Shown here piece after piece: positions 31,030-64,000 of a stretch of 64,000 nucleotides of DNA. The position numbers and the translations under genes were made by a program. The stretch covers positions 932,001-996,000 of the forward strand of contig OZ249436.1 in assembly GCA_965235115.1 (NCBI GenBank), in the 5' to 3' direction. Origin of the DNA: Laetmonice hystrix (lineage: Eukaryota). Numbering within the stretch: the first letter of the stretch is position 1; the number at the start of each line of letters is the position of its first letter. The notes under the pieces are model-generated. The model saw only the letters and a program-made list of their open reading frames with translations. It had not been told where the DNA came from and did not search any database.

Positions 31030-32206
31030 CCGCCTGTTGCAGGTGGGTTGTGCATGAACTCTGCCTGTTGCAGGTGGGTTGTGCATGAACTCTGCCTGTT
31101 GCAGGTGGGTTGTGCATGAACTCTGCCTGTTGCAGGTGGGTTGTGCCTGAACTCTGCCTGTTGCAGGTGGGTTGTGCCTGAACTTTGCCTGTTGCAGGTG
31201 GTTGTGCATGAATTCTGCCTGTTGCAGGTGGGTTGTGCATGAACTCTGCCTGTTGCAGGTGGGTTGTGCCTGAACTCTGCCTGTTGCAGGTGGGTTCTGT
31301 ATAAACCAACACGGTTTACTTCCTATATCGCAGGTGGGCCCTGTTCGATCTAACTCTGTTGCAGGTGGGTGCCTATATACTAAAAAGGCATGCCTGTACT
31401 TGCAGGTGGGCCGTGATAGTCTTTGCCTGTTGTAGCTGGGTCAATATGAACTCACAGGGTGTGCCTGTTGCAGGTGGGCCCTGATAGTCTTTGCCTGTTG
31501 TAGGTGGGTCACTATGAACTCACAGGGTGTGCCTGTTGCAGGTGGGCCCTGATAGTCTTTGCCTGTTGTAGGTGGGTCACTATGAACTGACAGGGTACTG
31601 TGCCTGTTGCAGGTGGGCCGTGATAGTCTTTGCCTGTTGTAGGTGGGTCACTATGAACTGACAGGGTGTGCCTGTTGCAGGTGGGCCCTGATAGTCTTTG
31701 CCTGTTGTAGGTGGGTCACTATGAACTGACAGGGTGTGCCTGTTGCAGGTGGGCCCTGATAGTCTTTGCCTGTTGTAGGTGGGTCTCTATGAACTGACAG
31801 GGTGTGCCTGTTGCAGGTGGGCCGTGATAGTCTTGCCTGTTGTAGGTGGGTCACTATGAACTGACAGGGTGTGCCTGTTGCAGGTGGGCCCTGATAGTCT
31901 TTGCCTGTTGTAGGTGGGTCACTATGAACTGACAGGGTGTGCCTGTTGCAGGTGGGCCCTGATAGTCTTTGCCTGTTGTAGGTGGGTCACTATGAACTGA
32001 CAGGGTGTGCCTGTTGCAGGTGGGCCGTGATAGTCTTTGCCTGTTGTAGGTGGGTCTCTATGAACTGACAGGGTGTGCCTGTTGCAGGTGGGCCGTGATA
32101 GTCTTTGCCTGTTGTAGGTGGGTCACTATGAACTGACAGGGTGTGCCTGTTGCAGGTGGGCCCTGATAGCCTTGCCTGTTGTAGGTGGGTCTCTATGAAC
32201 TGACAG
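31030..32206 (+). repeat. Compound minisatellite (31-bp and about 68-bp units) carrying about 30 acceptor-like CCTGTTGYAG|GTGGG motifs
   Basis: Resembles the true exon-2 acceptor CTGTTACAG|GTTGGG at 32215-32229. Confidence 0.9.
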
Positions 32207-32223
32207 GTCTCTGACTGTTACAG

Positions 32224-32366
32224 GTTGGGTTTTTCATCTACTACTGTCTGGAGGCAGGAGATATCAGCCCGGCTGGCCCGATTCCTGCCAACAGCATGTT
32301 CATCTATCGCCCTGACAAGAGGATCGAAATCTGGCGGTTCTTCTTCTACATGCTCATACACGCTGG
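32224..32366 (+). CDS. rho: Rhomboid coding exon 2
   Basis: cag|VGFFIYYCLEAGDISPAGPIPANSMFIYRPDKRIEIWRFFFYMLIHAG|gtgagt; WR motif; 143 nt; missed by the ORF track. Confidence 0.95.
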
Positions 32367-35300
32367 GTGAGTACATACCTTCTACATGCTCATACACGCT
32401 GGGTGAGTGCATACCTTCTACATGCTCATACACGCTGGGTGAGTACCTTCTACATGCTCATACACGCTGGGTGAGTACCTTCTACATGCTCATACACGCT
32501 GGGTGAGTACATGCTCATACACGCTGGGTGAGTACATGCTCATACACGCTGGGTGAGTACATACTCATACACGCTGGGTGAGTACCTTCTACATGCTCAT
32601 ACACGCTGGGTGAGTACCTTCTACATGCTCATACACGCTGGGTGAGTACCTTCTACATGCTCATACACGCTGGGTGAGTACCTTCTACATGCTCATACAC
32701 GCTGGGTAAGTACCTTCTACATGCTCATACACGCTGGGTGAGTACCTTCTACATGCTCATACACGCTGGGTAAGTACCTTCTACATGCTCATACACGCTG
32801 GGTGAGTACATGCTCATACACGCTGGGTGAGTACATACTCATACACGCTGGGTGAGTACCTTCTACATGCTCATACACGCTGGGTGAGTACCTTCTACAT
32901 GCTCATACACGCTGGGTGAGTACCTTCTACATGCTCATACACGCTGGGTGAGTGCATACCTTCTACATGCTTATACACGCTGGGTGAGTACATGCTCATA
33001 CACGCTGGGTGAGTACATGCTCATACACGCTGGGTGAGTACATGCTCATACACGCTGGGTGAGTACATGCTCATACACGCTGGGTGAGTACATACTCATA
33101 CACGCTGGGTGAGTACATGCTCATACACGCTGGGTGAGTACCTACCTTCTACATGCTCATACACGCTGGGTGAGTACCTACCTTCTACATGCTCATACAC
33201 GCTGGGTGAGTACCTACCTTCTACATGCTCATACACGCTGGGTGAGTACCTACCTTCTACATGCTCATACACGCTGGGTGAGTACATACCTTCTACATGC
33301 TCATACACGCTGGGTGAGTACCTTCTACATGCTCATACACGCTGGGTGAGTACCTTCTACATGCTCATACACGCTGGGTGAGTACCTTCTACATGCTCAT
33401 ACACGCTGGGTGAGTACCTTCTACATGCTCATACACGCTGGGTGAGTGCATACCTTCTACATGCTTATACACGCTGGGTGAGTACATGCTCATACACGCT
33501 GGGTGAGTACATGCTCATACACGCTGGGTGAGTACATGCTCATACACGCTGGGTGAGTACATGCTCATACACGCTGGGTGAGTGCATACCTTCTACATGC
33601 TCATACACGCTGGGTGAGTACATGCCTTCTACATGCTCATACACGCTGGGTGAGTACCTTTTACATGCTCATACACGCTGGGTGAGTACCTTCTACATGC
33701 TCATACACGCTGGGTGAGTACCTTCTACATACTCATACACGCTGGGTGAGTACCTTCTACATGCTCATACACGCTGGGTGAGTACCTTCTACATGCTCAT
33801 ACACGCTGGGTGAGTACCTTCTACATGCTCATACACGCTGGGTGAGTACCTTCTACATGCTCATACACGCTGGGTGAGTACCTTCTACATGCTCATACAC
33901 GCTGGGTGAGTACATGCTCATACACGCTGGGTGAGTACATGCTCATACACGCTGGGTGAGTACATGCTCATACACGCTGGGTGAGTACATGCTCATACAC
34001 GCTGGGTGAGTACATGCTCATACACGCTGGGTGAGTGCATACCTTCTACATGCTCATACACGCTGGGTGAGTACATGCTCATACACGCTGGGTGAGTGCA
34101 TACCTTCTACATGCTCATACACGCTGGGTGAGTGCATACCTTCTACATGCTCATACACGCTGGGTGAGTGCATACCTTCTACATGCTCATACACGCTGGG
34201 TAAGTACCTTCTACATGCTCATACACGCTGGGTGAGTACCTTCTACATGCTCATACACGCTGGGTGAGTACCTTCTACATGCTCATACACGCTGGGTGAG
34301 TACATGCTCATACACGCTGGGTGAGTACATGCTCATACACGCTGGGTGAGTACCTTCTACATGCTCATACACGCTGGGTGAGTACCTTCTACATGCTCAT
34401 ACACGCTGGGTGAGTACCTTCTACATGCTCATACACGCTGGGTGAGTACCTTCTACATGCTCATACACGCTGGGTGAGTACATGCTCATACACGCTGGGT
34501 GAGTACATGCTCATACACGCTGGGTGAGTACCTTCTACATGCTCATACACGCTGGGTGAGTACCTTCTACATGCTCATACACGCTGGGTGAGTACCTTCT
34601 ACATGCTCATACACGCTGGGTGAGTACCTTCTACATGCTCATACACGCTGGGTGAGTACATGCTCATACACGCTGGGTGAGTACATGCTCATACACGCTG
34701 GGTGAGTACCTTCTACATGCTCATACACGCTGGGTGAGTACCTTCTACATGCTCATACACGCTGGGTGAGTACATGCTCATACACGCTGGGTGAGTACCT
34801 TCTACATGCTCATACACGCTGGGTGAGTACCTTCTACATGCTCATACACGCTGGGTGAGTACATGCTCATACACGCTGGGTGAGTGCATACCTTCTACAT
34901 GCTCATACACGCTGGGTGAGTACCTTCTACATGCTCATACACGCTGGGTGAGTACCTTCTACATGCTCATACACGCTGGGTGAGTACCTTCTACATGCTC
35001 ATACACGCTGGGTGAGTGCATACCTTCTACATGCTCATACACGCTGGGTGAGTGCATACCTTCTACATGCTCATACACGCTGGGTGAGTGCATACCTTCT
35101 ACATGCTCATACACGCTGGGTGAGTACATGCCTTCTACATGCTCATACACGCTGGGTGAGTGCATACCTTCTACATGCTCATACACGCTGGGTAAGTGCA
35201 TACCTTCTACATGCTCATACACGCTGGGTGAGTGCATACCTTCTACATGCTCACACACGCTGGGTGAGTGCATACCTTCTACATGCTCATACACGCTGGG

Positions 35301-36760
35301 TGAGTACCGTCTACATGCTCATACACGCTGGGTGAGTACCTTCTACATGCTCATACACGCTGGGTGAGTGCATACCTTCTACATGCTCATACACGCTGGG
35401 TGAGTGCATACCTTCTACATGCTCATACACGCTGGGTGAGTACATGCTCATACACGCTGGGTGAGTACATGCCTTCTACATGCTCATACACGCTGGGTGA
35501 GTGCATACCTTCTACATGCTCATACACGCTGGGTGAGTGCATACCTTCTACATGCTCATACACGCTGGGTGAGTACATGCTCATACACGCTGGGTGAGTG
35601 CATACCTTCTACATGCTCATACACGCTGGGTGAGTACATGCTCATACACGCTGGGTGAGTGCATACCTTCTACATGCTCATACACGCTGGGTGAGTGCAT
35701 ACCTTCTACATGCTCATACACGCTGGGTGAGTGCATACCTTCTACATGCTCATACACGCTGGGTGAGTGCATACCTTCTACATGCTCATACACGCTGGGT
35801 GAGTACATGCTCATACACGCTGGGTAAGTGCATACCTTCTACATGCTCATACACGCTGGGTGAGTACCTTCTACATGCTCATACACGCTGGGTGAGTGCA
35901 TACCTTCTACATGCTCATACACGCTGGGTGAGTGAATACCTTCTACATGCTCATACACGCTGGGTGAGTACATGCTCATACACGCTGGGTGAGTACCTTC
36001 TACATGCTCATACACGCTGGGTGAGTACATGCTCATACACGCTGGGTGAGTACCTTCTACATGCTCATACACGCTGGGTGAGTGAATACCTTCTACATGC
36101 TCATACACGCTGGGTGAGTACATGCTCATACACGCTGGGTGAGTGCATACCTTCTACATGCTCATACACGCTGGGTGAGTACCTTCTACATGCTCATACA
36201 CGCTGGGTGAGTGCATACCTTCTACATGCTCATACACGCTGGGTGAGTACCTTCTACATGCTCATACACGCTGGGTGAGTACATGCTCATACACGCTGGG
36301 TGAGTGCATACCTTCTACATGCTCATACACGCTGGGTGAGTGCATACCTTCTACATGCTCATACACGCTGGGTGAGTACATGCTCATACACGCTGGGTGA
36401 GTACATGCTCATACACGCTGGGTGAGTACATGCTCATACACGCTGGGTGAGTACATGCTCATACACGCTGGGTGAGTACATGCTCATACACGCTGGGTGA
36501 GTGCATACCTTCTACATGCTCATACACGCTGGGTGAGTACATGCTCATACACGCTGGGTGAGTACATGCTCATACACGCTGGGTGAGTGCATACCTTCTA
36601 CATGCTCATACACGCTGGTTGAGTACATACCTTCTACATGCTCATACACGCTGGGTGAGTACCTTCTACATGCTCATACACGCTGGGTGAGTGCATACCT
36701 TCTACATGCTCATACACGCTGGGTGAGTACATGCTCATACACGCTGGGTGAGTGCATACC
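32344..36760 (+). repeat. Minisatellite (25/32/36-bp units, about 140 copies) made from the exon-2 donor junction
   Basis: TTCTACATGCTCATACACGCTGG|GTGAGT repeated; the first copy is the exon end. Confidence 0.97.
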
Positions 36761-37767
36761 TCGCCACCAGGTGGCATGACGATCTAAGGGCACCCACCAT
36801 TAGAATATCCAATGGGTACTCGAGCTTTTGCCCAGCCATTTGTTGTTGTTTCCTTTAATTGCCTTGTTGCCATATGGCTACATACACTTCAAACGCCCCC
36901 TGGCACCAAATTATAAGTCCCAGATGTCAGTTGACATTTAATTCACAAAGTAACCACCAGGGTGGTTCTAAGGTACAATACTGCCATCTAGCGGCAATGC
37001 GCAATATTACGACCATCCCAAGGACATGTCATGGCCGTCACCATCTAGAAAGCCGGCACAAACTGAGTACCTTTTTTTCAAGATATTTCTATATTCCAAC
37101 GAGTGCTGAAATAAAATGATCTTTGTATTTGTTTAGAGTAATAGACATAGAAAGTAATGAAATAGGTAATAATATGTGGAACAGGTTATGATAATCTTAG
37201 TTCAATGATATATATATTATGTAGCCAAATGGCTACATTGCCAAGTGCATAATCAGTTCATATAATCTGTTAGGCCTATTATATAGTTTGAATTTGTAAA
37301 GTTTGTGTAAAGTGTATTAGTATTAGTATTATTAGTATTATAGAAGAGATGTGATGATAGAAATAAAGAGTTGAGTCACAGTTATATGCATGTTGTATTG
37401 TTTTCCAGACTCAAATTGGATACCTGTACTTGGCAATGTAGCCAAATGGCTACAAACCCTATTTTCAAAAATTAGGTCAGCCCCCCCAATTTGAGTGTAC
37501 TTTTGTATTTCCACTGCATATCCACACCGTTTGGTGAGTTTATGGATTTTTTCTTCCAAGCAAAGGCATGTTGCCAATTAAAGGGTTAAAATTATTTTTT
37601 GCAATATTGTTCCTGCAAGTCGCAAAAGAGAAAGTTGATATATTATGTCCTTATAGAATTTTCTTTATTTCACCCCTGTCCCCGTATTCATTTGGAAACA
37701 CTCCAGGTATTCTACTGGCGCTTTCTAAGGAAGAAATAAACGCATTGTGGCTGTGGAAGTCGCTCAT

Positions 37768-38129
37768 TCCTGGTAATCACAACCATCCCCAGTCTGCAAA
37801 AAGTTAAATTATTCCTGGTAATCACAACCATCCCCAGTCTGCAAAAAGTTAAATTATTCCTGGTAATCACAACCATCCCCAGTCTGCAAAAGGTTACATT
37901 TTTTCTGGTAATCACAACCATCCCCAGTCTGCAAAAAGTTAAATTATTTCTGGTAATCACAACCATCCCCAGTCTGCAAAAAGTTAAATTATTTCTGGTA
38001 ATCACAACCATCCCCAGTCTGCAAAAAGTTAAATTATTCCTGGTAATCACAACCATCCCCAGTCTGCAAAAGGTTACATTTTTTCTGGTAATCACAACCA
38101 TCCCCAGTCTGCAAAAAGTTAAATTATTC
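37768..38129. repeat. 45-bp minisatellite, 8 copies
   Basis: CTGGTAATCACAACCATCCCCAGTCTGCAAAAAGTTAAATTATTY repeated. Confidence 0.95.
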
Positions 38130-38608: not shown

Positions 38609-39068
38609 CTTGTGTTGCTGTTGTTCAATGTTTAGGTGGGTGCACCTGTCAAATCGTCTGGTTCTATAATAAGCTAACCTTGTGTTGCTGTTGTTCAATG
38701 TTTAGGTGGGTGCACCTGTCAAATCGTCTGGTTCTATAATAAGCTAACCTTGTGTTGTTGTTTGTCAATGTTTAGGTGGGTGCGCCTGTCAAATCGTCTG
38801 GCTCTATAATATGCTAACCTTGTGTTGCTGTTTTTGAATGTTTAGGTGGGTGCACCTGTCAAATCGTCTGGCTCTATAATATGCTAACCTTGTGTTGCTG
38901 TTTTTGAATGTTTAGGTGGGTGCACCTGTCAAATCGTCTGGCTCTATAATAACCTAACCTTGTGTTGTTTTATTGAATGTTTAGGTGGGTGCGCCTGTCA
39001 AATCGTCTGGCTCTATAATATGCTAACCTTGTGTTGTTGTTTTTGAATGTTTAGGTGGGTGCACCTGT
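38609..39068 (+). repeat. 70-bp repeat, 7 copies, made from the exon-3 acceptor (branch point, tract and AG)
   Basis: GCTAACCTTGTGTTG...AATGTTTAG|GTGGGTGCACCTGT repeated; the last copy is the functional acceptor. Confidence 0.95.
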
Positions 39069-39167
39069 TTTTCAACATGCTCGTCCAGTTATTGGTTGGG
39101 ATACCATTGGAGATGGTGCACGGCTCCTGTCGGATTGGTACTGTGTATATGGCCGGAGTACTAGCAG
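39055..39167 (+). CDS. rho: Rhomboid coding exon 3
   Basis: tag|[39 protein letters not shown]|gtagat; HxxxN motif; 113 nt. Confidence 0.95.
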
Positions 39168-39524: not shown

Positions 39525-39625
39525 GGTCACTGGGTACGTCCGTGTTTGACAAGGACGTGTTTCTGGTCGGTGCCTCTGGTGGGGTCTACGCCCTCCTGGC
39601 CGCCCACCTCGCCAATATCCTCCTG
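39525..39625 (+). CDS. rho: Rhomboid coding exon 4 (catalytic Ser)
   Basis: cag|[35 protein letters not shown]|gtgagt; GASGG motif; 101 nt. Confidence 0.97.
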
Positions 39626-40339: not shown

Positions 40340-40394
40340 AATTATTCTGAAATGGAGCTGGGAATCTTGAAGCTTGTTGCTGTTTTCATCATAG
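40340..40394 (+). CDS. rho: Rhomboid coding exon 5
   Basis: ctgcag|NYSEMELGILKLVAVFII G|gtaaag; 55 nt, phases fit both neighbours. Confidence 0.9.
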
Positions 40395-40519: not shown

Positions 40520-40712
40520 TTATTATCTTAACTTATCTTATCCTATCGTTATCTTATCTTATCCTATCGTTATCTTATCTTATCTTATCGTTATCTTATC
40601 TTATTTCATCGTTATCTTATCTTATCTTCTCGTTATCTTATCTTATTTCATCGTTATCTTATCTTATTTCATCGTTATCTTATCTTATCTTCTCGTTATC
40701 TTATCGTTATCT
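40520..40712. repeat. (TTATC)n degenerate microsatellite
   Basis: Read directly. Confidence 0.9.
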
Positions 40713-40772
40713 GTACCTGAATGTGTCTTTCACTAGCAGATGTATCACATAAACCGATTGTTTTTGTTCCAG

Positions 40773-41002
40773 CGTCCGCCGACGTTGGTTTCGCGATTTG
40801 GGACCGGTACACGGGCGACGACGCGACGCCACCTGTCGGCTATGTGGCGCATATCATGGGGGCGTTGGCTGGACTGACGATCGGCCTTTTGGTTCTGAAA
40901 AACTTTGAACAAAAACTCCACGTGCAGATCATGTGGTGGGTGGCCCTAGGTGTGTACACGGTTTGTACAGTGTTCGCCATTCTATGGAACATATTCTATT
41001 AG
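40773..41002 (+). CDS. rho: Rhomboid terminal coding exon 6 (catalytic His)
   Basis: ccag|CG SADVGFAIWDRY...VGYVAHIMGALAGLTIG...WNIFY*; spliced CDS 873 nt = 290 aa plus stop. Confidence 0.97.
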
Positions 41003-42234
41003 ATAAATACACAGATAATACTCAAGTGGCTGGCATCACGAAACTCTCCGAGCATGGCAATATGGGGCTAGATCTATAAATAGAGACCTCTCGTACCCGC
41101 GCTGGACGTGGACATGCACAGAGTCAGGCATAGCAAACATTGCGTAGGTTTTTATAACGGAAAGGCAGTCAATTCGTGAGACAGACACGATGAGAAGCAG
41201 TTGGTTGGAGCGGCGTGGACAACGTCTGTCGGGGAGATTGAACTGCTCCTATTCTGACCTGAACTGACCTGAATATATCGGTTTGTCTGAAGTTCTGTAT
41301 GCTGAAATCTCTAGTCGATCTCTACAGGTCAGGACTGAACCCCCGGGGACCAAGTAGGGCGGTCATCTCCGATATCAGTTCGAGGATTTTAAGGCAATTT
41401 TGAGGCTGGTATCAAATGAAACGTGAGCGGACATAACCTCGGTATTTTGCCTTAAATCATGTTCTGTATGAAGGTCTAGATCTATCGGGAATTCCTGACA
41501 AGTTGTGATTGGGTAAAGGTCTAAAGGTCGCGGATAACGCTACATGCCCCTGACCAGACATGTGTCCGTCAGTGAGTGACGGTTGTGATGACGGCCTGTT
41601 GGACAGGGCCCGTACCTCAACGTTTTCTTTATTCTGAGTGAAGACAATCATTTCATCTGTCATCAGCACCATAAACTCATACCCATTACCACCGCCCCGT
41701 CTTGGTGAACCCCACCTTTACCTGCTTGAAGATCGCACCGGTTGCTGACCCCATCTTGAATTAAAAAAAACAACATTTTCATAATTATTTGACTGAGCCT
41801 AATACTAATAGCCTGTTTATATTGTTTATAAAAGACCAGCTGCTTTTGTTAAAATTTCACATTTTTAACATTTTCATTCATTTCATCACTACATATCAGC
41901 CTAGTATGTCTGCTGTAATAATACGGTATCGATCTAAAGGGACGTTTGTTTCACTTGAAGTATTAGGAAACTTTTAATTTCTCCTCAAAGTTGAATATGA
42001 AAAAAAAATCCGTGAGGTTCTGTGAACAGATAATACGCAGCAACTATTCTGGCTAATTAGGTACAAACAAGCCAGGCACGCAATTAAGGCATTGAGTGTT
42101 TTAATTTGTCTAACAGGATCGAGCGATTTCCACGTGTATATAGTCATAGAATCATAATGTACATGGTATCCACGGGATGGCGTAGATGAACTCGGTAAGG
42201 TTGGCTGCAACATGATTATCTGATTAACTTTCAT

Positions 42235-44496: not shown

Positions 44497-46423
44497 TTTA
44501 GAGAAGATCACCAGTATGATATCATGTGTTGGGGTGTGTTTAGAGAAGATCACCAGTATGATATCATGTGATGGGGTGTGTTTAGAGAAGATCACCAGTA
44601 TATCATGTGTTGGGGTGTGTTTAGAGAAGATCACCAGTATGATATCATGTGTTGGGGTGTGTTTAGAGAAGATCACCAGTATGATATCATGTGATGGGGT
44701 GTGTTTAGAGAAGATCACCAGTATATCATGTGTTGGGGTGTGTTTAGAGAAGATCACCAGTATGATATCATGTGATGGTGTGTGTTTAGAGAAGATCACC
44801 AGTATGATATCATGTGTTGGGGTGTGTTTAGAGAAGATCACCACTATGATATCATGTGTTGGGGTGTGTTTAGAGAAGATCACCACTATGATATCATGTG
44901 TTGGGGTGTGTTTAGAGAAGATCACCAGTATGATATCATGTGTTGGGGTGTGTTTAGAGAAGATCACCAGTATGATATGTGTTGGGGTGTGTTTAGAGAA
45001 GATCACCAGTATGATATCATGTGTTGGGGTGTGTTTAGAGAAGATCACCAGTATGATATGTGTTGGGGTGTGTTTAGAGAAGATCACCAGTATGATATCA
45101 TGTGTTGGGGTGTGTTTAGAGAAGATCACCAGTATGATATCATGTGTTGGGGTGTGTTTAGAGAAGATCACCAGTATGATATGTGTTGGGGTGTGTTTAG
45201 AGAAGATCACCAGTATGATATCATGTGTTAGGGTGTGTTTAGAGAAGATCACCAGTATGATATGTGTTGGGGTGTGTTTAGAGAAGATCACCAGTATGAT
45301 ATCATGTGTTAGGGTGTGTTTAGAGAAGATCACCAGTATGATATCATGTGTTGGGGTGTGTTTAGAGAAGATCACCAGTATGATATCATGTGTTGGGGTG
45401 TGTTTAGAGAAGATCACCAGTATGATATCATGTGTTGGGGTGTGTTTAGAGAAGATCACCAGTATGATATCATGTGTTGGGGTGTGTTTAGAGAAGATCA
45501 CCAGTATGATATCATGTGTTGGGGTGTGTTTAGAGAAGATCATCAGTATGATATCATGTGTTGGGGTGTGTTTAGAGAAGATCACCAGTATGATATCATG
45601 TGTTGGGGTGTGTTTAGAGAAGATCACCAGTATGATATCATGTGATGGGGTGTGTTTAGAGAAGATCACCAGTATGATATCATGTGTTGGGGTGTGTTTA
45701 GAGAAGATCACCAGTATGATATCATGTGTTGGGGTGTGTTTAGAGAAGATCACCAGTATGATATCATGTGTTGGGGTGTGTTTAGAGAAGATCACCAGTA
45801 TGATTGTGTGTGTTGGGGTGTGTTTAGAGAAGATCACCAGTATGATATCATGTGTTGGGGTGTGTTTAGAGAAGATCACCAGTATGATATCATGTGTTGG
45901 GGTGTATTTATAAGAAGATCACCAGTATGATATCATGTGTTGGGGTGTGTTTAGAGAAGATCACCAGTATGATATCATGTGTTGGGGTGTGTTTAGAGAA
46001 GATCACCAGTATGATATCATGTGTTGGGGTGTGTTTAGAGAAGATCACCAGTATGATATCATGTGATGGGGTGTGTTTAGAGAAGACCACCAGTATGATA
46101 TCATGTGTTAGGGTGTGTTTAGAGAAGATCACCAGTATGATATCATGTGTTGGGGTGTGTTTAGAGAAGATCACCAGTATGATATCATGTGTTGGGGTGT
46201 GTTTAGAGAAGATCACCAGTATGATATCATGTGTTGGGGTGTGTTTAGAGAAGATCACCAGTATGATATCATGTGTTGGGGTGTGTTTAGAGAAGATCAC
46301 CAGTATGATATCATGTGTTGGGGTGTGTTTAGAGAAGATCACCAGTATGATATCATGTGTTGGGGGGTGTTTAGAGAAGATCACCAGTATGATTGTGTGT
46401 GTTGGGGTGTATTTAGAGAAGAT
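44497..46423. repeat. 42/39-bp minisatellite, about 46 copies, abutting a GPCR acceptor
   Basis: TTTAGAGAAGATCACCAGTATGATATCATGTGTTGGGGTGTG repeated. Confidence 0.97.
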
Positions 46424-48999: not shown

Positions 49000-49827
49000 G
49001 AGACTTACCGGGAACTGTAATGTTAGGAGACTCACCGGGAACTGTAATGTTAGGAGACTCACCGGAAACTGTAATGTTAGGAGACTCACCGGAAACTGTA
49101 ATGTTAGGAGACTCACCGAGAACTGTAATGTTAGGAGACTCATCGGGAACTCTAATGTTAGGAGACTCACCGGAAACTGTAATGTTAGGAGACTCACCGG
49201 AAACTGTAATGTTAGGAGACTCACCGGAAACTGTAATGTTAGGAGACTCACCGGGAACTCTAATGTTAGGAGACTCATCGGGAACTCTAATGTTAGGAGA
49301 CTCACCGGGAACTCTAATGTTAGGAGACTTACCGGGAACTGTAATGTTAGGAGACTCACCGGGAACTGTAATGTTAGGAGACTCACCGGGAACTGTAATG
49401 TTAGGAGACTCACTCGGAACTGTAATGTTAGGAGACTCACCGGGAACTGTAATGTTAGGAGACTTACCGATAACTGTAATGTTATGAGACTCACCGATAA
49501 CTGTAATGTTAGGAGACTCACCGGGAACTGTAATGTTAGGAGACTCACCGGGAACTGTAATGTTAGGAGACTTACCGGGAACTGTAATGTTAGGAGACTC
49601 ACCGGGAACTGCAATGTTAGGAGACTCACCGGGAACTGTAATGTTAGGAGACTCACTCACCGGGAACTGTAATGTTAGGAGACTCACTCACCGGGAACTG
49701 TAATGTTAGGAGACTCACCGGGAACTGTAATGTTAGGAGAACTGTAATGTTAGGAGACTCACCGAGAACTCTAATGTTAGGAGAACTGTAATGTTAGGAG
49801 ACTCACCGGGAACTGTAATGTTAGGAG
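49000..49827 (-). repeat. 27-bp minisatellite, about 30 copies, made from the TM7-exon donor
   Basis: Minus-strand unit CTCCTAACATTACAGTTCCCG|GTGAGT. Confidence 0.95.
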
Positions 49828-49931
49828 GGTATACAGGAAAGGGTTGAGCGCCGAGTTCACAGGAAGGATGAAGACTACCGTCCAGGCATACACCACACCA
49901 GGCACCCGCACGTCAAGTAAAGCCATCAGAC
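49807..49931 (-). CDS. GRL101: GRL101-like GPCR, TM7 exon
   Basis: tttcag|GT LMALLDVRVPGVVYAWTVVFILPVNSALNPFLYTLLTLQFP|gtgagt; NSxxNPxxY motif; missed by the ORF track. Confidence 0.92.
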
Positions 49932-52371: not shown

Positions 52372-53913
52372 CCATCGTGTTGATCGGGACCCAGCAACAG
52401 AAGTCGACAAACACCAGAAACGTCATTTTGCGTGCTCTCTTCATCTCGCGACCTTTTTGCGCCTGCGATCCCACATTTTTGATTGACTTGTACATCAGGG
52501 TATATGCTCCCCACATGAGTAGGAATATGGTAAAATTGAGCGCGTGGAATATGATGAAAGAATACTCCCATCCAGGGGAGATGTCGGGTGTAATATAGAG
52601 CGCCACACAGACCCCTGACCGCGCGTAAAACTGACCTTTGAAGTACTCGCTTGGCATCATGGGAATGACAAAGAGCATGACGACAGTTGCCCACACTGTC
52701 GCCATGACGACACGCGCTGAGTTCAGCGTTAGATGGTGGGTGGAGAATGGAAAGAGGAGTTTGTGCATGCGATCGCAGGTAACGACGAATAAAGTCAGGA
52801 CTGAGGTTTCACTGGAGACTGCCGAGAGAAATCCTAAAACTTGGCACGTCCAGCTGAGCCGCCATGACGTAGCGTTTTCGATGTACTGACCGCGGTAACG
52901 TGCATCCACCACTCCGATCACTAACATGTAGAACCCCATGAGGAGATCGGCCAGCGCTAGGTTCTTGATGAGATAATTAGGGACGACCAAGTCAAACACG
53001 TGTGTACTTCTCCACGTCAGTACGAACACGTTACCAATGATAGAAATACAGGCTAGGATCCAGATAAAAGCCCTCAGGACCTGGTGACTCATCAGATCCT
53101 CACAGGAAGAAACCTCGTCTTGTTTGGGGAGACATGCAGACGGCGGTAGTGACACAAAACAACAAAACATGTAGTCATCACTCTCAAGATACCGCAGGCC
53201 GCGTAAGTTCTCCAAGTCTCTCTTCAAGAAGTCGATGATCACATTCCGACTCATGTTCAAGTGTTCTAGGTTAGAAAGACCATGAAAAGCGCCATGTTCT
53301 AGGAGTGAGATGTCATTATTTGATATATCCAGGTGAGTTAGACTTTGGAGACGTTTAAAGGTTCCTGACTTTATTACTGTCAGTTGCATGTCACTGAAGT
53401 CCAGTCGGGGCAAACTGACCAGAGACTGGAGAGAGTCGTGAGAGATGAACATTAATGGGTTTCCATCGAGATGTAGCTCATTGAGTTGTCCTAACCCGCT
53501 AAAAACGTCATCCGTTAGAACCCGGATGTCATTCCAGGAGATATCGAGACGCTTCAGGTTGTACTGGGACGCGAAGGGACAGCATGACAGATTATAAATA
53601 CCATTCCAAGACAGACCCAGTTCAATGAGGAAATAAAACGATCGAAAAGTATCATCTGTGATTGTACTCACAGCATTACCAGACAAGTTTAGAGCTCGGG
53701 CAGCTACTGAGACTGACGAAGGTACCCGAACCAATCCGACCTGTGTACACGTGTACGTAAGGCTGTGACATTGGCAACCTTGAGGGCACTCAAGGTCACA
53801 GTAAAGTTCATCGTCACCATGATGACAGTGACGTATGCCATCACAGCGTTGACGGGCAGTTACACAGTTCATGGATCCGCGACACCGTATCATTCCAGGA
53901 CAGGCGTAGGAAT
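52372..53913 (-). CDS. GRL101: GRL101-like GPCR, large exon: last LDLa, LRRNT, LRRs, hinge and TM1-TM6
   Basis: ttag|AT...CDGIRHCHHGDDELYC, LxxLDLSxN-type repeats, SSCEDLM hinge, NLALADLLMG, CDR, CWVP G|gtgagt; 1542 nt. Confidence 0.96.
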
Positions 53914-54080: not shown

Positions 54081-54197
54081 AGCAGTCACGTTCGTCCTCG
54101 CCGTTCGGACAGTCAGCGGCGCCGTCACAGACCTTGTAGGCGGCCACGCAGTAACTGGACGGGCACTTGGCCTGTCCCGCGGGACACTGGAAGCCTT
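54081..54197 (-). CDS. GRL101: GRL101-like GPCR, LDLa exon
   Basis: ttgtag|AA GFQCPAGQAKCPSSYCVAAYKVCDGAADCPNGEDERDC T|gtaagc; 117 nt, phase 1-1. Confidence 0.93.
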
Positions 54198-57100
54198 CTA
54201 CAACATCGGACACAAAATTATACCGTGATTTACACTGGAAGTCTTCTACAACATCAGACACAAAATTATACGGTGATGTCATGAACCCTGGAAGTTTTCT
54301 ACAACATCAGACACAGAATTATACGGTGATGGACACTGGAAGTCTTCTACAACATCAGACACAGAATTATACGGTGATGTCATGAACCCTGGAAGTTTTC
54401 TACAACATCAGACACAGAATTATACGGTGATGGACACTGGAAGTCTTCTACAACATCAGACACAAAATTATACGGTGATGGACACTGGAAGTCTTCTACA
54501 ACATCAGACACAGAATTATACCGTGATTTACACTGGAAGTCTTCTACAACATCAGACACAAAGTTATACGGTGATGGACACTGGAAGTCTGCTACAACAT
54601 CAGACACAAAGTTATACGGTGATGGACACTGGAAGTCTGCTACAACATCAGACACAAAATTATACCGTGATTTACACTGGAAGTCTTCTACAACATCGGA
54701 CACAAAATTATACGGTGATGGACACTGGAAGTCTTCTGCAACATCAGACACAAAATTATACGGTGATGGACACTGGAAGTCTTCTACAACATCAGACACA
54801 AAATTATACGGTGATGGACACTGGAAGTCTTCTACAACATGAGACACAAAATTATACGGTGATGGACACTGGAAGTCTTCTACAACATCAGACACAAAAT
54901 TATACGGTGATGGACACTGGAAGTCTTCTACAACATCAGACACAAAATTATACGGTGATGGACACTGGAAGTCTTCTACAACATCAGACACAAAATTATA
55001 CGGTGATGGACACTGGAAGTCTTCTACAACATCAGACACAAAATTATACGGTGATGGACACTGGAAGTCTGCTACAACATCAGACACAGAATTATACGGT
55101 CATGGACACTGGAAGTCTTCTACAACATCAGACACAAAATTATACGGTGATGGACACTGGAAGTCTTCTACAACATCAGACACAAAATTATACGGTGATG
55201 TCATGGACACTGGAAGTCTTCTACAACATCAGACACAGAATTATACGGTGATGGACACTGGAAGTCTTCTACAACATCAGACACAGAATTATACGGTGAT
55301 GGACACTGGAAGTCTTCTACAACATCAGACACAGAATTATACGGTGATGGACACTGGAAGTCTGCTACAACATCAGACACAGAATTATACGGTGATGGAC
55401 ACTGGAAGTCTGCTACAACATCAGACACAGAATTATACGGTGATGTCATGGACACTGGAAGTCTTCTACAACATCAGACACAGAATTATACGGTGATGGA
55501 CACTGGAAGTCTGCTACAACATCAGACACAGAATTATACGGTGATGGACACTGGAAGTCTGCTACAACATCAGACACAGAATTATACGGTGGTGGACACT
55601 GGAAGTCTGCTACAACATCAGACACAGAATTATACGGTGATGGACACTGGAAGTCTGCTACAACATCAGACACAAAGTTATACGGTGATGGACACTGGAA
55701 GTCTTCTACAACATCATACACAAAATTATACGATGATGGACACTGGAAGTCTTCTACAACATCAGACACAGAATTATACGGTGATGGACACTGGAAGTCT
55801 GCTACAACATCAGACACAAAATTATACGGTGATGGACACTGGAAGTCTTCTACAACATCAGACACAAAATTATACGGTGATGGACACTGGAAGTCTTCTA
55901 CAACATCAGACACAAAATTATACCGTGATTTACACTGGAAGTCTTCTACAACATCAGACACAGAATTATACGGTGATGGACACTGGAAGTCTTCTACAAC
56001 ATCAGACACAAAATTATACGGTGATGGACACTGGAAGTCTTCTACAACATCAGACACAAAATTATACGGTGATGGACACTGGAAGTCTTCTACAACATCA
56101 GACACAAAATTATACGGTGATGGACACTGGAAGTCTTCTACAACATCAGACACAAAATTATACCGTGATTTACACTGGAAGTCTTCTACAACATCAGACA
56201 CAGAATTATACGGTGATGGACACTGGAAGTCTTCTACAACATCAGACACAAAATTATACGGTGATGGACACTGGAAGTCTTCTACAACATCAGACACAGA
56301 ATTATACGGTGATGGACACTGGAAGTCTGCTACAACATCAGACACAGAATTATACGGTGATGGACACTGGAAGTCTTCTACAACATCGGACACAGAATTA
56401 TACCGTGATTTACACTGGAAGTCTTCTACAACATCAGACACAAAATTATACGGTGATGGACACTGGAAGTCTTCTACAACATGAGACACAAATTTTATAC
56501 GGTGATGGACACTGGAAGTCTTCTACAACATCAGACACAAATTTTATACGGTGATGGACACTGGAAGTCTTCTACAACATCAGACACAAAATTATACGGT
56601 GATGTCATGAACCCTGGAAGTTTTCTACAACATCAGACACAAAGTTATACGGTGATGGACACTGGAATTCTTCTACAACATCAGACACAGAATTATACCG
56701 TGATTTACACTGGAAGTCTTCTACAACATCAGACACAAAATTATACGGTGATGTCATGAACCCTGGAAGTTTTCTACAACATCAGACACAAAATTATACG
56801 GTGATGGACACTGGAAGTCTTCTACAACATCAGACACAAAATTATACGGTGATGGACACTGGAAGTCTTCTACAACATCAGACACAGAATTATACCGTGA
56901 TTTACACTGGAAGTCTTCTACAACATCAGACACAGAATTATACGGTGATGGACACTGGAAGTCTTCTACAACATCAGACACAGAATTATACCGTGATTTA
57001 CACTGGAAGTCTTCTACAACATCAGACACAAAATTATACGGTGATGGACACTGGAAGTCTTCTACAACATCAGACACAGAATTATACGGTGATGGACACT

Positions 57101-60100
57101 GGAAGTCTTCTACAACATCAGACACAGAATTATACGGTGATGGACACTGGACGTCTTCTACAACATCAGACACAGAATTATACGGTGATGGACACTGGAA
57201 GTCTTCTACAACATCAGACACAAAATTATACGGTGATGGACACTGGAAGTCTTCTACAACATCAGACACAGAATTATACGGTGATGGACACTGGAAGTCT
57301 TCTACAACATCAGACACAGAATTATACGGTGATGGACACTGGAAGTCTTCTACAACATCAGACACAAAATTATACGGTGATGGACACTGGAAGTCTTCTA
57401 CAACATCAGACACAGAATTATACGGTGATGGACACTGGAAGTCTTCTACAACATCAGACACAGAATTATACGGTGATGGACACTGGAAGTCTGCTACAAC
57501 ATCAGACACAGAATTATACGGTGATGGACACTGGAAGTCTGCTACAACATCAGACACAGAATTATACGGTGATGTCATGGACACTGGAAGTCTTCTACAA
57601 CATCAGACACAGAATTATACGGTGATGGACACTGGAAGTCTGCTACAACATCAGACACAGAATTATACGGTGATGGACACTGGAAGTCTGCTACAACATC
57701 AGACACAGAATTATACGGTGGTGGACACTGGAAGTCTGCTACAACATCAGACACAGAATTATACGGTGATGGACACTGGAAGTCTGCTACAACATCAGAC
57801 ACAAAGTTATACGGTGATGGACACTGGAAGTCTTCTACAACATCATACACAAAATTATACGATGATGGACACTGGAAGTCTTCTACAACATCAGACACAG
57901 AATTATACGGTGATGGACACTGGAAGTCTGCTACAACATCAGACACAAAATTATACGGTGATGGACACTGGAAGTCTTCTACAACATCAGACACAAAATT
58001 ATACGGTGATGGACACTGGAAGTCTTCTACAACATCAGACACAAAATTATACCGTGATTTACACTGGAAGTCTTCTACAACATCAGACACAGAATTATAC
58101 GGTGATGGACACTGGAAGTCTTCTACAACATCAGACACAAAATTATACGGTGATGGACACTGGAAGTCTTCTACAACATCAGACACAAAATTATACGGTG
58201 ATGGACACTGGAAGTCTTCTACAACATCAGACACAAAATTATACGGTGATGGACACTGGAAGTCTTCTACAACATCAGACACAAAATTATACCGTGATTT
58301 ACACTGGAAGTCTTCTACAACATCAGACACAGAATTATACGGTGATGGACACTGGAAGTCTTCTACAACATCAGACACAAAATTATACGGTGATGGACAC
58401 TGGAAGTCTTCTACAACATCAGACACAGAATTATACGGTGATGGACACTGGAAGTCTGCTACAACATCAGACACAGAATTATACGGTGATGGACACTGGA
58501 AGTCTTCTACAACATCGGACACAGAATTATACCGTGATTTACACTGGAAGTCTTCTACAACATCAGACACAAAATTATACGGTGATGGACACTGGAAGTC
58601 TTCTACAACATGAGACACAAATTTTATACGGTGATGGACACTGGAAGTCTTCTACAACATCAGACACAAATTTTATACGGTGATGGACACTGGAAGTCTT
58701 CTACAACATCAGACACAAAATTATACGGTGATGTCATGAACCCTGGAAGTTTTCTACAACATCAGACACAAAGTTATACGGTGATGGACACTGGAATTCT
58801 TCTACAACATCAGACACAGAATTATACCGTGATTTACACTGGAAGTCTTCTACAACATCAGACACAAAATTATACGGTGATGTCATGAACCCTGGAAGTT
58901 TTCTACAACATCAGACACAAAATTATACGGTGATGGACACTGGAAGTCTTCTACAACATCAGACACAAAATTATACGGTGATGGACACTGGAAGTCTTCT
59001 ACAACATCAGACACAGAATTATACCGTGATTTACACTGGAAGTCTTCTACAACATCAGACACAGAATTATACGGTGATGGACACTGGAAGTCTTCTACAA
59101 CATCAGACACAGAATTATACCGTGATTTACACTGGAAGTCTTCTACAACATCAGACACAAAATTATACGGTGATGGACACTGGAAGTCTTCTACAACATC
59201 AGACACAGAATTATACGGTGATGGACACTGGAAGTCTTCTACAACATCAGACACAGAATTATACGGTGATGGACACTGGACGTCTTCTACAACATCAGAC
59301 ACAGAATTATACGGTGATGGACACTGGAAGTCTTCTACAACATCAGACACAAAATTATACGGTGATGGACACTGGAAGTCTTCTACAACATCAGACACAG
59401 AATTATACGGTGATGGACACTGGAAGTCTTCTACAACATCAGACACAGAATTATACGGTGATGGACACTGGAAGTCTTCTACAACATCAGACACAAAATT
59501 ATACGGTGATGGACACTGGAAGTCTTCTACAACATCAGACACAGAATTATACGGTGATGGACACTGGAAGTCTTCTACAACATCAGACACAGAATTATAC
59601 GGTGATGGACACTGGAAGTCTTCTACAACATCAGACACAAAATTATACGGTGATGGACACTGGAAGTCTTCTACAACATCAGACACAAAATTATACGGTG
59701 ATGGACACTGGAAGTCTTCTACAACATCAGACACAAAATTATACGGTGATGGACACTGGAAGTCTTCTACAACATGAGACACAAATTTTATACGGTGATG
59801 GACACTGGAAGTCTTCTACAACATCAGACACAAATTTTATACGGTGATGGACACTGGAAGTCTTCTACAACATCAGACACAAAATTATACGGTGATGTCA
59901 TGAACCCTGGAAGTTTTCTACAACATCAGACACAAAGTTATACGGTGATGGACACTGGAATTCTTCTACAACATCAGACACAGAATTATACCGTGATTTA
60001 CACTGGAAGTCTTCTACAACATCAGACACAAAATTATACGGTGATGTCATGAACCCTGGAAGTTTTCTACAACATCAGACACAAAGTTATACGGTGATGG

Positions 60101-62591
60101 ACACTGGAAGTCTTCTACAACATCAGACACAGAATTATACCGTGATTTACACTGGAAGTCTTCTACAACATCAGACACAGAATTATACCGTGATTTACAC
60201 TGGAAGTCTTCTACAACATCAGACACAGAATTATACCGTGATTTACACTGGAAGTCTTCTACAACATCAGACACAGAATTATACGGTGATGGACACTGGA
60301 AGTCTTCTACAACATCAGACACAGAATTATACGGTGATGGACACTGGAAGTCTTCTACAACATCAGACACAAAATTATACGGTGATGGACACTGGAAGTC
60401 TTCTACAACATCAGACACAAAATTATACGGTGATGGACACTGGAAGTCTTCTACAACATCAGACACAAAATTATACCGTGATTTACACTGGAAGTCTTCT
60501 ACAACATCAGACACAGAATTATACGGTGATGGACACTGGAAGTCTTCTACAACATCAGACACAAAATTATACGGTGATGGACACTGGAAGTCTTCTACAA
60601 CATCAGACACAGAATTATACGGTGATGGACACTGGAAGTCTGCTACAACATCAGACACAGAATTATACGGTGATGGACACTGGAAGTCTTCTACAACATC
60701 GGACACAGAATTATACCGTGATTTACACTGGAAGTCTTCTACAACATCAGACACAAAATTATACGGTGATGGACACTGGAAGTCTTCTACAACATGAGAC
60801 ACAAATTTTATACGGTGATGGACACTGGAAGTCTTCTACAACATCAGACACAAATTTTATACGGTGATGGACACTGGAAGTCTTCTACAACATCAGACAC
60901 AAAATTATACGGTGATGTCATGAACCCTGGAAGTTTTCTACAACATCAGACACAAAGTTATACGGTGATGGACACTGGAATTCTTCTACAACATCAGACA
61001 CAGAATTATACCGTGATTTACACTGGAAGTCTTCTACAACATCAGACACAAAATTATACGGTGATGTCATGAACCCTGGAAGTTTTCTACAACATCAGAC
61101 ACAAAATTATACGGTGATGGACACTGGAAGTCTTCTACAACATCAGACACAAAATTATACGGTGATGGACACTGGAAGTCTTCTACAACATCAGACACAG
61201 AATTATACCGTGATTTACACTGGAAGTCTTCTACAACATCAGACACAGAATTATACGGTGATGGACACTGGAAGTCTTCTACAACATCAGACACAGAATT
61301 ATACCGTGATTTACACTGGAAGTCTTCTACAACATCAGACACAAAATTATACGGTGATGGACACTGGAAGTCTTCTACAACATCAGACACAGAATTATAC
61401 GGTGATGGACACTGGAAGTCTTCTACAACATCAGACACAGAATTATACGGTGATGGACACTGGACGTCTTCTACAACATCAGACACAGAATTATACGGTG
61501 ATGGACACTGGAAGTCTTCTACAACATCAGACACAAAATTATACGGTGATGGACACTGGAAGTCTTCTACAACATCAGACACAGAATTATACGGTGATGG
61601 ACACTGGAAGTCTTCTACAACATCAGACACAGAATTATACGGTGATGGACACTGGAAGTCTTCTACAACATCAGACACAAAATTATACGGTGATGGACAC
61701 TGGAAGTCTTCTACAACATCAGACACAGAATTATACGGTGATGGACACTGGAAGTCTTCTACAACATCAGACACAGAATTATACGGTGATGGACACTGGA
61801 AGTCTTCTACAACATCAGACACAAAATTATACGGTGATGGACACTGGAAGTCTTCTACAACATCAGACACAAAATTATACGGTGATGGACACTGGAAGTC
61901 TTCTACAACATCAGACACAAAATTATACGGTGATGGACACTGGAAGTCTTCTACAACATGAGACACAAATTTTATACGGTGATGGACACTGGAAGTCTTC
62001 TACAACATCAGACACAAATTTTATACGGTGATGGACACTGGAAGTCTTCTACAACATCAGACACAAAATTATACGGTGATGTCATGAACCCTGGAAGTTT
62101 TCTACAACATCAGACACAAAGTTATACGGTGATGGACACTGGAATTCTTCTACAACATCAGACACAGAATTATACCGTGATTTACACTGGAAGTCTTCTA
62201 CAACATCAGACACAAAATTATACGGTGATGTCATGAACCCTGGAAGTTTTCTACAACATCAGACACAAAGTTATACGGTGATGGACACTGGAAGTCTTCT
62301 ACAACATCAGACACAGAATTATACCGTGATTTACACTGGAAGTCTTCTACAACATCAGACACAGAATTATACCGTGATTTACACTGGAAGTCTTCTACAA
62401 CATCAGACACAGAATTATACCGTGATTTACACTGGAAGTCTTCTACAACATCAGACACAGAATTATACGGTGATGGACACTGGAAGTCTTCTACAACATC
62501 AGACACAGAATTATACGGTGATGGACACTGGAAGTCTTCTACAACATCGGACACAAAATTATACGGTGACACTGGAGGTCTTCTACAACAT
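54183..62591 (-). repeat. 48-bp minisatellite, about 175 copies, made from the LDLa-exon acceptor; fills almost the whole intron
   Basis: Minus-strand unit CATCACCGTATAATTYTGTGTCTGATGTTGTAG|AAGACTTCCAGTGTC. Confidence 0.97.
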
Positions 62592-62608
62592 ATATGTAAG
62601 ATACTGAC

Positions 62609-62893
62609 CGCAGTTCTCGAGGTGACCAGCGTCCCGGCATCCCAGGATGACTCCATAACGGTCACTGTCATATAAACACCTCCAGTCCTCCGGGTAACGC
62701 TGTGTGTTCTTACATCGAACCGTCTCCGACCCTGGAGAAGGTGGTCGCCTGGAGGACGCCAGAGACACACACATACCTTTATCTTCGTCCTCCTTGTGAG
62801 TTCCGGGACAGTCGACTATGACGTCACAGCGTCGGTCCAATGATATACACGTGCCATCATAACACTGGAAGGTGTGGTCCATGGAACACGTAT
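62609..62893 (-). CDS. GRL101: GRL101-like GPCR, LDLa exon
   Basis: ctcag|AT TCSMDHTFQCYDGTCISLDRRCDVIVDCPG...CLYDSDRYGVILGCRDAGHLENC G|gtcagt; 285 nt, phase 1-1. Confidence 0.92.
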
Positions 62894-63074
62894 CTGAGAG
62901 TAGGAATAAAGACGTTACAATTATGTAGCTTTTATTCTCTAACTGACACACTGACTGCAAAGTGAGTTGACCAGGCAATCCGATAGTGTCACATTATACA
63001 CCTTAAGATTTTCTTACTTTTCTCGCTGAAAGAATAAAAATCGGAATGAAAGAAATCAGCTTGAGGTTAGGTTA

Positions 63075-63628
63075 TACTGAAACAACCCAACAGTTGAACG
63101 GAGTGAGACGTCAAATAATATACCGAAACAACCCAACAGTTGAACGGAGTGAGACGTCAAATAATATACCGAAACAACCCAACAGTTGAACGGAGTGAGA
63201 CATCAAATAATATACCGAAACAACCCAACAGTTGAACGGAGTGAGACGTCAAATAATATACCCAAACAACCCAACAGTTGAACGGAGTGAGACGTCAAAT
63301 AATATACCCAAACAACCCAACAGTTGAACGGAGTGAGACGTCAAATAATATACCCAAACAACCCAACAGTTGAACGGAGTAAGACGTCAAATAATATACC
63401 GAAACAACCCAACAGTTGAACGGAGTGGGACGTCAAATAATATACCGAAACAACCCAACAGTTGAACGGAGTGAGACGTCAAATAATATACCGAAACAAC
63501 CCAACAGTTGAACGGAGTGAGACGTCAAATAATATACCGAAACAACCCAACAGTTGAACGGAGTGAGACGTCAAATAATATACCGAAACAACCCAACAGT
63601 TGAACGGAGTGAGACGTCAAATAATATA
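63075..63628. repeat. 46-bp minisatellite, about 12 copies
   Basis: GAAACAACCCAACAGTTGAACGGAGTGAGACGTCAAATAATATACC repeated. Confidence 0.95.
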
Positions 63629-63778
63629 TTTCGTCAGAGAATACTATTTCCCAATTAAAAGATTATGGTAGGGGCCTAGTACATTTTGTCTGAAACCATG
63701 TGAACCTCCAAGCCACTGAAAGTATCCCCTGTGACTTTGGACCAGAATTCCAGTTCTGTGTTGAGGAGGTGTACTCAC

Positions 63779-63895
63779 CACAGGCCACTTCGTCCGAGGA
63801 GTCTGCGCAGTGAGGCCAAAGGTCACAGCGGTCCTCGCCCCGTATACATACAGCATCCGCACACCGGAACTCGGCGTCTGTACAGTTCGGGAACG
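63779..63895 (-). CDS. GRL101: GRL101-like GPCR, LDLa exon; the gene continues beyond the window
   Basis: ttgcag|CG FPNCTDAEFRCADAVCIRGEDRCDLWPHCADSSDEVAC G|gtgagt; 117 nt, phase 1-1; missed by the ORF track. Confidence 0.92.
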
Positions 63896-64000
63896 CTGCA
63901 AGCGTTCACATCCATACATTATCTACACATAGCGTCCGCACACCGGAACTCGGCGTCTGTAACGTTACAGTTCGTGAACGCTACAACCGTTCACATCCAT

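Follow-up and report, generated by a model that had tools for sequence, protein, structure and literature searches.

The 64,000-nt stretch of the Laetmonice hystrix genome analysed here (C1:932,001-996,000, C1 being contig OZ249436.1; hereafter the window) harbours two intact multi-exon genes, one for a rhomboid protease on the plus strand and one for a GRL101-like LDLa/leucine-rich repeat (LRR) G-protein-coupled receptor (GPCR) on the minus strand. Both genes carry tandem arrays with repeat units taken from their own splice junctions, a feature already recognized in the preliminary description and on which sequence reading and homology-based exon ends agree. The genome comprises 627 Mb in 35 contigs. 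Telomere hexamer arrays are present at both ends of C1 (C1:113-1605 and C1:73766455-73767551); this 73.8-Mb chromosome is thus assembled from telomere to telomere, and the window, starting 0.93 Mb from the telomere, is subtelomeric. Tandem Repeats Finder (TRF) yielded 101 rows for the window, which merged into 41 arrays covering 55.6 % of its length. Exon ends were set by tblastn with homologues combined with reading of the splice signals, and all counts of array sites given below include the authentic site.

Pfam Rhomboid matches three exons of the plus-strand gene, the last exon of which shares 84 % identity with Capitella teleta and 72-79 % with several molluscs and one nemertean. Joined at the exon-adjacent sites, the model forms an open frame of 290 amino acids that can be aligned over its entire length with Capitella P0121 (residues 60-354; 74.5 % identity). 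N-terminal rhomboid exons were not found by tblastn; in positions 1-27700 of the window, where some 25 arrays are located, comparison with rhomboid relatives revealed no exon. The minus-strand gene displays LDLa modules, LRRs and a rhodopsin-type seven-transmembrane (7TM) region according to Pfam and homologues. Its model, joined likewise, is open over 666 amino acids and shares 40 % identity with spider GRL101 (603 columns) and 75 % with P0001. Since the joined frames are open and align with homologues, both genes look functional.

The donor of rhomboid exon 2 (boundary ..CATACACGCTGG/GTGAGTAC; exon-intron boundaries are marked by a slash throughout) is the first site of an array with 142 ACACGCTGG anchors (Table 1), 141 of which are followed by an intact GTRAGT (136 GTGAGT, 5 GTAAGT) at spacings of 32 nt (50 cases), 36 nt (46) and 25 nt (45). 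At the opposite end of the same intron, the exon-3 acceptor boundary is present seven times within a 70-nt array. Altogether, arrays fill 4,837 of the 6,688 nt (72 %) of rhomboid intron 2, as calculated from the coordinates. Acceptor-like copies had also been reported for exon 2, and indeed two arrays with CAG/GTGGG and TAG/GTGGG units run toward its acceptor; the second of them stops 16 nt short of the acceptor AG (32222-32223), whose surroundings (CAG/GTTGGG) look like a diverged last copy of this array. Two further arrays supposed to end within about 20 nt of acceptors could not be traced: apart from the one just mentioned, the nearest ends lie at 60 nt (40712 to 40772) and 179 nt.

In case of the GPCR gene, the boundary of LDLa exon C reads ..GATGTTGTAG/AAGGCTTCCAGTGTCC, and its acceptor array contains 173 TGTTGTAG sites. 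The intron that separates LDLa exons B and C is 8,579 nt long, and 8,394 nt of it (97.8 %) consist of arrays. Within this 48-nt array, exact multi-kb internal duplications are apparent, with identical strings of open reading frames (ORFs) about 2,129 and 2,184 nt apart, which could represent either a higher-order repeat structure or an effect of assembly. The duplicated acceptor suspected at the window edge proved to be an 85-nt duplication of the LDLa-A acceptor. The exon encoding transmembrane helix 7 (TM7) ends with ..ACAGTTCCCG/GTGAGTCTC, followed by an array in which GTRAGT occurs 29 times, the exon-adjacent site included. Read-through past this site meets a stop after 10 codons, 17 after the NPxxY motif, and tblastn with homologues found no GPCR exon after TM7. 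Of the TM7 donor array postulated before, the repeated donor-type sites are therefore retained, while their authentic member is a presumed splice donor. For the four arrays at the exon-2 donor, the exon-3 acceptor, TM7 and LDLa exon C, the numbers estimated previously (about 140, 7, about 30 and about 175) come close to those measured (142, 7, 29 and 173).

Use of unauthentic copies (decoys) would disrupt the encoded proteins with a single exception. In translations of the joined model, the second or third copy of the exon-2 donor leads to a stop at rhomboid codon 126, and each of the six exon-3 decoy acceptors to a stop at codon 136. The first TM7 decoy adds 44 nt with stops, the LDLa-A decoy (exon start 63956) yields a stop after 11 codons, and the LDLa-C decoys give stops from the second (+101 nt) onward. 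Solely the nearest LDLa-C decoy (+48 nt) is in frame, and it would add 16 residues. Thus, the rule that the conserved frame is provided by the exon-adjacent copy holds insofar as both joined models are open and decoys give stops, but "always", as originally worded, does not withstand this one decoy.

The splice signals of the decoys are not eroding: a mutation is found in one of the 142 exon-2 donors, and at the 12 intron positions preceding the exon in the LDLa unit, 0-6 of the 173 copies deviate. Such integrity could indicate that the arrays are kept for a function, i.e., (i) as arrays of U1/U2AF sites aiding exon definition, (ii) for recursive removal via AG/GTGGGT units, or (iii) for tunable unproductive splicing. 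The rhomboid AG/GTGGGT units, once joined to the upstream exon, would recreate a donor of the UGG/gugggu type given for human F7 (PMC1557585). However, whole units are as uniform as the splice signals, so that the integrity of the decoys reflects youth or concerted evolution of the arrays rather than selection on splice signals. Moreover, the LDLa unit lacks a GT after its AG, and the junction-derived arrays sampled at other loci (see below) are of all sizes and occur at the frequency predicted by chance. A functional role is therefore considered very unlikely.

Arrays of this kind, hereafter referred to as mirages after the amphioxus precedent discussed below, are not confined to the window. 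An independent sample was centred on protein-kinase exons, chosen to obtain junctions without bias, and comprised 64 loci (30 from a genome search with Pfam PF00069 and 34 further regions; 289,007 bases) with 61 arrays, which occupy 7.1 % of the bases, i.e., about one eighth of the coverage in the window. Arrays were screened by position (10 flagged), by the GTRAGT motif (7 flagged) and by a Pfam scan of 143 ORFs crossing array edges, and flagged cases were then read. Among the 59 sampled arrays with a period ≥12, at least seven have a junction-spanning unit; they reside on five other chromosomes (C2, C7, C8, C13 and C29), in agreement with the suspected recurrence of the phenomenon in the genome. 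Wherever the length of the contig is known, those outside L064 are located in the interior of the chromosome. These counts are lower bounds, because arrays beside exons without a recognizable domain would escape the screens. With an estimated 400-575 junction ends in the loci, 3.6-5.1 spanning arrays would be expected from uniform seeding, with which the observed number is compatible. In five further arrays (at L041, L048, L054, L057 and L058), one end is no more than about 6 nt away from a splice site. At L047 (AGTACCC) and L064 (GAGTCACTGCC), the joint of the duplication shows microhomology. Four of the 59 arrays (L015, two at L018, L026) were discarded as coding poly-Q or His-rich repeats inside exons rather than intronic junction arrays, as were arrays located 30-110 nt from a junction or beside no visible exon (two at L013, L028, L029, L036, L042, L044, L051 and the acceptor side of L058).

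Table 1 Exons and tandem arrays of the two genes in the window, followed by mirages at sampled kinase loci (positions with an L number refer to the respective locus)
Feature	Position	Strand	Evidence or remark
Rhomboid exon 1 (homology limit)	27764-27994	+	tblastn with Capitella and Lineus rhomboids; donor GAG/GTCAGT at 27994/27995
31-nt × 8.6 array, acceptor-like unit ..CTGTTGCAG/GTGGGTTGTG.. (CAG/GTGGG or TAG/GTGGG type)	31032-31296	+	TRF, sequence reading
68-nt × 11.9 array, two acceptor-like half-units CAG/GTGGGCC and TAG/GTGGGTC	31400-32207	+	TRF, sequence reading
Rhomboid exon 2, ending ..WRFFFYMLIHAG, donor CTGG/GTGAGT	32224-32366	+	tblastn, junction reading, joined model
Exon-2 donor array: last 24 nt of exon 2 and first 8-12 nt of intron, GTGAGTAC(ATAC)	32343-36757	+	TRF, sequence reading, site count
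45-nt × 8.1 array inside intron 2, not junction-derived	37766-38129	+	TRF
Exon-3 acceptor array: 70-nt unit of ~55 nt intron (..GAATGTTTAG) and first 14-15 nt of exon 3 (GTGGGTGCACCTGT)	38609-39068	+	TRF, sequence reading
Rhomboid exon 3	39055-39167	+	Pfam Rhomboid E=5.8e-10; tblastn
Rhomboid exon 4	39525-39625	+	Pfam, tblastn, joined model
Rhomboid exon 5	40340-40394	+	Pfam, tblastn, joined model
21-nt array in intron 5, ending 60 nt before exon-6 acceptor	40523-40712	+	TRF
Rhomboid exon 6, stop	40773-41002	+	Pfam, tblastn, joined model
TM7 donor-type array: 27-nt unit of 18 nt exon (CTAACATTACAGTTCCCG) and 9 nt putative intron (GTGAGTCTC)	49000-49839	-	TRF, sequence reading
GPCR TM7 exon (..NSALNPFLYTLLTLQFP)	49807-49931	-	tblastn with GRL101-like proteins
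GPCR large exon (LDLa remnant, LRRs, TM1-6)	52372-53913	-	Pfam LRR_8, 7tm_1; acceptor ..CACCTTAG/AT at 53914/53913 chosen by frame
LDLa exon C (EGFQCPAGQAKCPSSYCV..ERDC)	54081-54197	-	Pfam Ldl_recept_a E=1e-9; tblastn
LDLa-C acceptor array: 48-nt unit of 32 nt intron (..TCTGATGTTGTAG) and first 16 nt of exon C	54182-62591	-	TRF, sequence reading
LDLa exon B; nearest array ends ~180 nt away, no array at either junction	62777-62893	-	Pfam, junction reading
46-nt × 12 intronic array, not junction-derived	63073-63628	-	TRF, sequence reading
LDLa exon A	63779-63877	-	Pfam Ldl_recept_a E=1.5e-7
85-nt duplication (1.9 copies) of LDLa-A acceptor and ~33 nt of exon, cut by window end	63845-64000	-	TRF, sequence reading
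Kringle-exon acceptor, 157 nt × 3	L012:225-695		
Donor, 56 nt × 9.9	L027:596-1148		exon by open frame only
Donor, 59 nt × 2.8	L047:1734-1900		
Donor, 85 nt × 3.8	L061:3085-3405		
Pkinase_C-exon acceptor, 53 nt × 10	L064:905-1433		
Acceptor, 58 nt × 7	L064:3073-3473		
Donor, 79 nt × 14	L064:4061-5170		exon by open frame only

Downstream of the GPCR TM7 exon, the window contains an intact open frame of 640 amino acids with an RVT_1 domain (46499-48421, plus strand; E=2.8e-39), i.e., an element resembling long interspersed elements (LINE). Between the end of a 42-nt × 46 array (44497-46423) and this frame lie about 75 nt, and one frame extends from the array toward it. The 21-nt unit in rhomboid intron 5 has a summed k-mer depth of about 70 times single copy in three DNA runs, which implies that it is abundant at other places in the genome. 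Among the kinase matches, nine near-identical ones on one strand at C4:25253376-25298170, spaced by about 5.55 kb, represent a tandem repeat on the scale of a gene.

Formation of the mirages is attributed here, with a probability of about 0.6, to tandem duplication that affects non-coding DNA and exon edges in a roughly uniform manner, as the most economical reading: junction-straddling cases are tolerated, and their number tracks how often minisatellites form locally, this rate being extreme in the subtelomeric window. Initially, a 25-85-nt segment that straddled an exon-intron boundary by chance would give rise to a tandem pair, with slippage or template switching at short stretches of microhomology as the probable mechanism, and this pair would then be enlarged by unequal exchange or slippage to up to about 170 copies. 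The spliceosome is assumed to use the exon-adjacent site. Arrays would persist because this copy (first donor or last acceptor) still gives a normal mRNA; every other copy but one would place a stop codon in the message, and copies left unused would be harmless. The number of arrays would mainly reflect the very high minisatellite formation rate of this genome, for which there is partial evidence, and a special attraction of repeats to splice sites would not be needed. Direct observations behind this explanation are how the arrays are built, what decoy use would do to the reading frames, that mirages recur at other loci of the genome, and that the independent sample shows no enrichment.

With respect to the latter, a local hidden Markov model (HMM) built from 14 full-length kinase domains gave 114 exon matches, with 88 3' and 80 5' ends inside the domain. 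At these 168 ends, array ends within -80 to +25 nt amounted to 4 versus 4.70 expected, the control being the same windows moved 200-1400 nt into the flanks (59 matches at 2,105 positions), and spanning arrays to 2 versus 1.49 expected; hence, no enrichment is apparent at kinase exons. A first screen, confined to ends from the genome-search table (40 donor, 37 acceptor), had revealed no spanning array and is superseded by the local-HMM screen. For a genome-wide control, donor words occurring three times in a row at spacings of 12-45 nt, which mark arrays carrying the word in phase, were compared with the reversed pattern. Matches numbered 7,552 versus 7,506 reversed for GGTGAGT, 687 versus 1,280 for AGGTGAGT and 1,018 versus 926 for AGGTAAGT, summing up to 9,257 versus 9,712; these counts, to which large arrays contribute most and in which a small junction-derived fraction would hardly show, give no sign of donors as favoured seeds. 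Nucleation of repeats at splice junctions, as proposed in the preliminary description, is thus not supported outside the window, where the result comes close to the absence of enrichment over a shuffled null that had been named as its refutation; the excess within the window (P 0.002-0.02) stands.

This excess is one of several observations that weigh against uniform duplication. When array placement in the window was shuffled, the four arrays overlapping an exon edge by 8-40 nt contrasted with 0.42-0.48 expected (P 0.0004-0.0008). In a seeding null, which suits the birth of repeats better, each array was collapsed to one unit and the chance was calculated that a seed of this length would lie across any of the 20 junction ends known: four spanning arrays were observed versus 0.59 expected in the region 27.7-64 kb (P 0.002) and versus 1.09 in the whole window (P 0.022), corresponding to 4-7 times the prediction from uniform seeding. 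The same direction is indicated by L064 (C8:1100766-1106005), a PKC-like kinase gene located 1.10 Mb from the start of C8, which carries three mirages within 5.2 kb and one short intron consisting almost entirely of acceptor copies. Array-dense regions may therefore hold a real junction preference that is undetectable in an array-poor sample. Further points concern the expressed consequences and the sizes of the arrays. The in-frame LDLa-C decoy lies 48 nt upstream of the real acceptor and is identical to it in the last 12 intron bases, and exon definition alone would not silence it. Splice choice in both genes is predicted from the sequence, and the copy numbers of the 4.4-kb and 8.4-kb arrays are assembly counts.

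On this basis, junctions could be preferred seeds, if junction DNA (GT-rich donor, AG/GTGGG) or damage coupled to transcription or splicing made tandem duplications more frequent there, at least where subtelomeric chromatin is dense in arrays. Besides the window excess and the clustering at L064, which lies near another contig start, such a preference would agree with 5 of the 14 arrays in the gene region ending at junctions, and with GTGAGT or GTGGGT being contained on one strand in 11 of the 40 window array units versus 1.2 in length-matched non-array controls (6 of the 11 not at known junctions). However, the window was flagged for looking extreme, so that all tests on it are post hoc, and array ends within -80 to +25 nt of a junction were found at 5 of its 20 ends versus 1.8-3.3 expected (P 0.03-0.23). 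The GTGAGT/GTGGGT motif was likewise picked post hoc, and its excess was not reproduced in the independent sample (4 of 59 arrays versus 2.4; 104 of 500 control draws as high); GTRAGT was present there in 7 of the 59 arrays versus 2.6 (7 of 500 control draws as high), and three to four of these seven are mirages. Together with the kinase-exon ends and the phased donor motifs, neither of which is enriched over its control, these results render preferred seeding rather unlikely. Also doubtful, and even more so, is an extended version, in which junctions are preferred seeds in array-dense subtelomeric chromatin, copies of splice sites are a main motor of intron growth, and the AG/GTGGGT units are removed by recursive splicing. 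If true, introns consisting to 72-98 % of their own junctions would result, and recursive splicing would account for the harmlessness of hundreds of perfect decoys.

Arrays or array sizes could also have arisen from mis-assembly of repetitive reads. The large near-identical internal blocks of the 48-nt array would fit this explanation, the two largest arrays rest on the assembly, and one amphioxus mirage is described as mis-assembled in the draft genome (PMC3087553). On the other hand, in contigs from three DNA runs, the final copies of the 70-nt array reach a summed k-mer depth of about 440-560 versus about 45 for single copy (~10x), so that this repeat is present in the raw data; the four runs used are DNA contigs without intron-skipping joints, one small run spanning 41021-41939 only. 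Structured unit variants (25, 32 and 36 nt), a chromosome assembled from telomere to telomere and similar arrays at many independent loci also argue against an artefact, which is accordingly rated extremely unlikely.

The arrays bear on splicing and intron evolution. The presence of 140-170 identical splice sites beside the authentic one is an extreme test for models of splice-site choice. In case of donors, upstream-first scanning competes with exon definition; choice of the last acceptor is far less understood, and selection of the last among 173 near-identical acceptors represents the most interesting experimental question. Furthermore, whole introns can gain kilobases from copies of their own boundaries. 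A junction preference in array-dense regions, if true, would bear on the expansion and origin of introns; the independent sample shows none.

Judged by their structure, the arrays belong to a known but rare class, the "mirage" minisatellites, i.e., tandem duplications of exon-intron boundaries. They are arranged head to tail with TRF periods of 25-36, 27, 48, 70 and 85 nt, inside the minisatellite range of about 10-160 bp. Each unit unites an exon edge with the intron edge next to it, splice signal included; the authentic junction forms the terminal copy, the TM7 donor being a presumptive case. Contrary to the preliminary description, which knew of no such system, amphioxus mirages (PMC3087553) and human cases (PMC1557585) have been published. 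A literature search retrieved no genome-wide study of boundary-spanning repeats and no report from outside chordates, which is weak evidence of absence. New are thus the lophotrochozoan-like host and the very high copy number, while the kind itself was already described. The known range of mirages, so far amphioxus and a small number of human genes, thereby comes to include a lophotrochozoan-like genome; with at least 7 spanning arrays out of 59 in the 289 kb of sampled kinase loci, they look common there.

In humans, minisatellites with a first unit spanning an exon-donor boundary occur in F7 (37-bp variable number tandem repeat of IVS7), IFI6 (6-16), CBS IVS13, LMNB2 and PDGF (PMC1557585). 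The most upstream donor is normally used in F7, LMNB2 and PDGF, in case of F7 as the only one of 5-9 identical donors (PMC1557585). The exon-2 donor array of the rhomboid gene shares this organization of an authentic donor followed by identical pseudo-donors (141 of 142 intact). The human cases described are all donors with 5-25 copies, whereas acceptor arrays are as common as donor arrays here and require that the last copy be chosen rather than the first.

Amphioxus mirages are found at 5' and 3' boundaries, leave splicing undisturbed as judged by reverse transcription PCR (RT-PCR) and undergo concerted evolution (PMC3087553). They are known from the globins BflGb6 and BflGb9 and from Adh3, the latter cited from Canestro et al. 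2002 (PMC3087553), as well as from TnC and PGBD5 (PMC3902484). As in the present genome, their units span 5' and 3' boundaries, the AG or GT signal is retained in most copies and the authentic copy is located at the edge of the cluster. They differ in host, amphioxus being a cephalochordate while the best named relatives of the present proteins are from annelids and molluscs, and in extent, since amphioxus globins have 3-6 units compared to 141 and 172 decoys here, where whole introns consist of arrays to 72-98 %. In amphioxus, splicing and length polymorphism were shown; the present arrays are known from the sequence of one genome assembly. The possible relation to intron gain by tandem duplication, raised in the preliminary description, is likewise a shared trait, as amphioxus mirages were proposed as raw material for intron gain and linked by their authors to the model of Rogers (PMC3087553). 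Tandem duplication of AG/GT exon segments according to this model includes splice-site sequence, as does the duplication observed here (PMC3087553). In contrast to the model, the junctions of the present genes pre-exist and interrupt conserved motifs (HAG/WVHLFFN and the starts of LDLa modules), and the arrays lengthen old introns.

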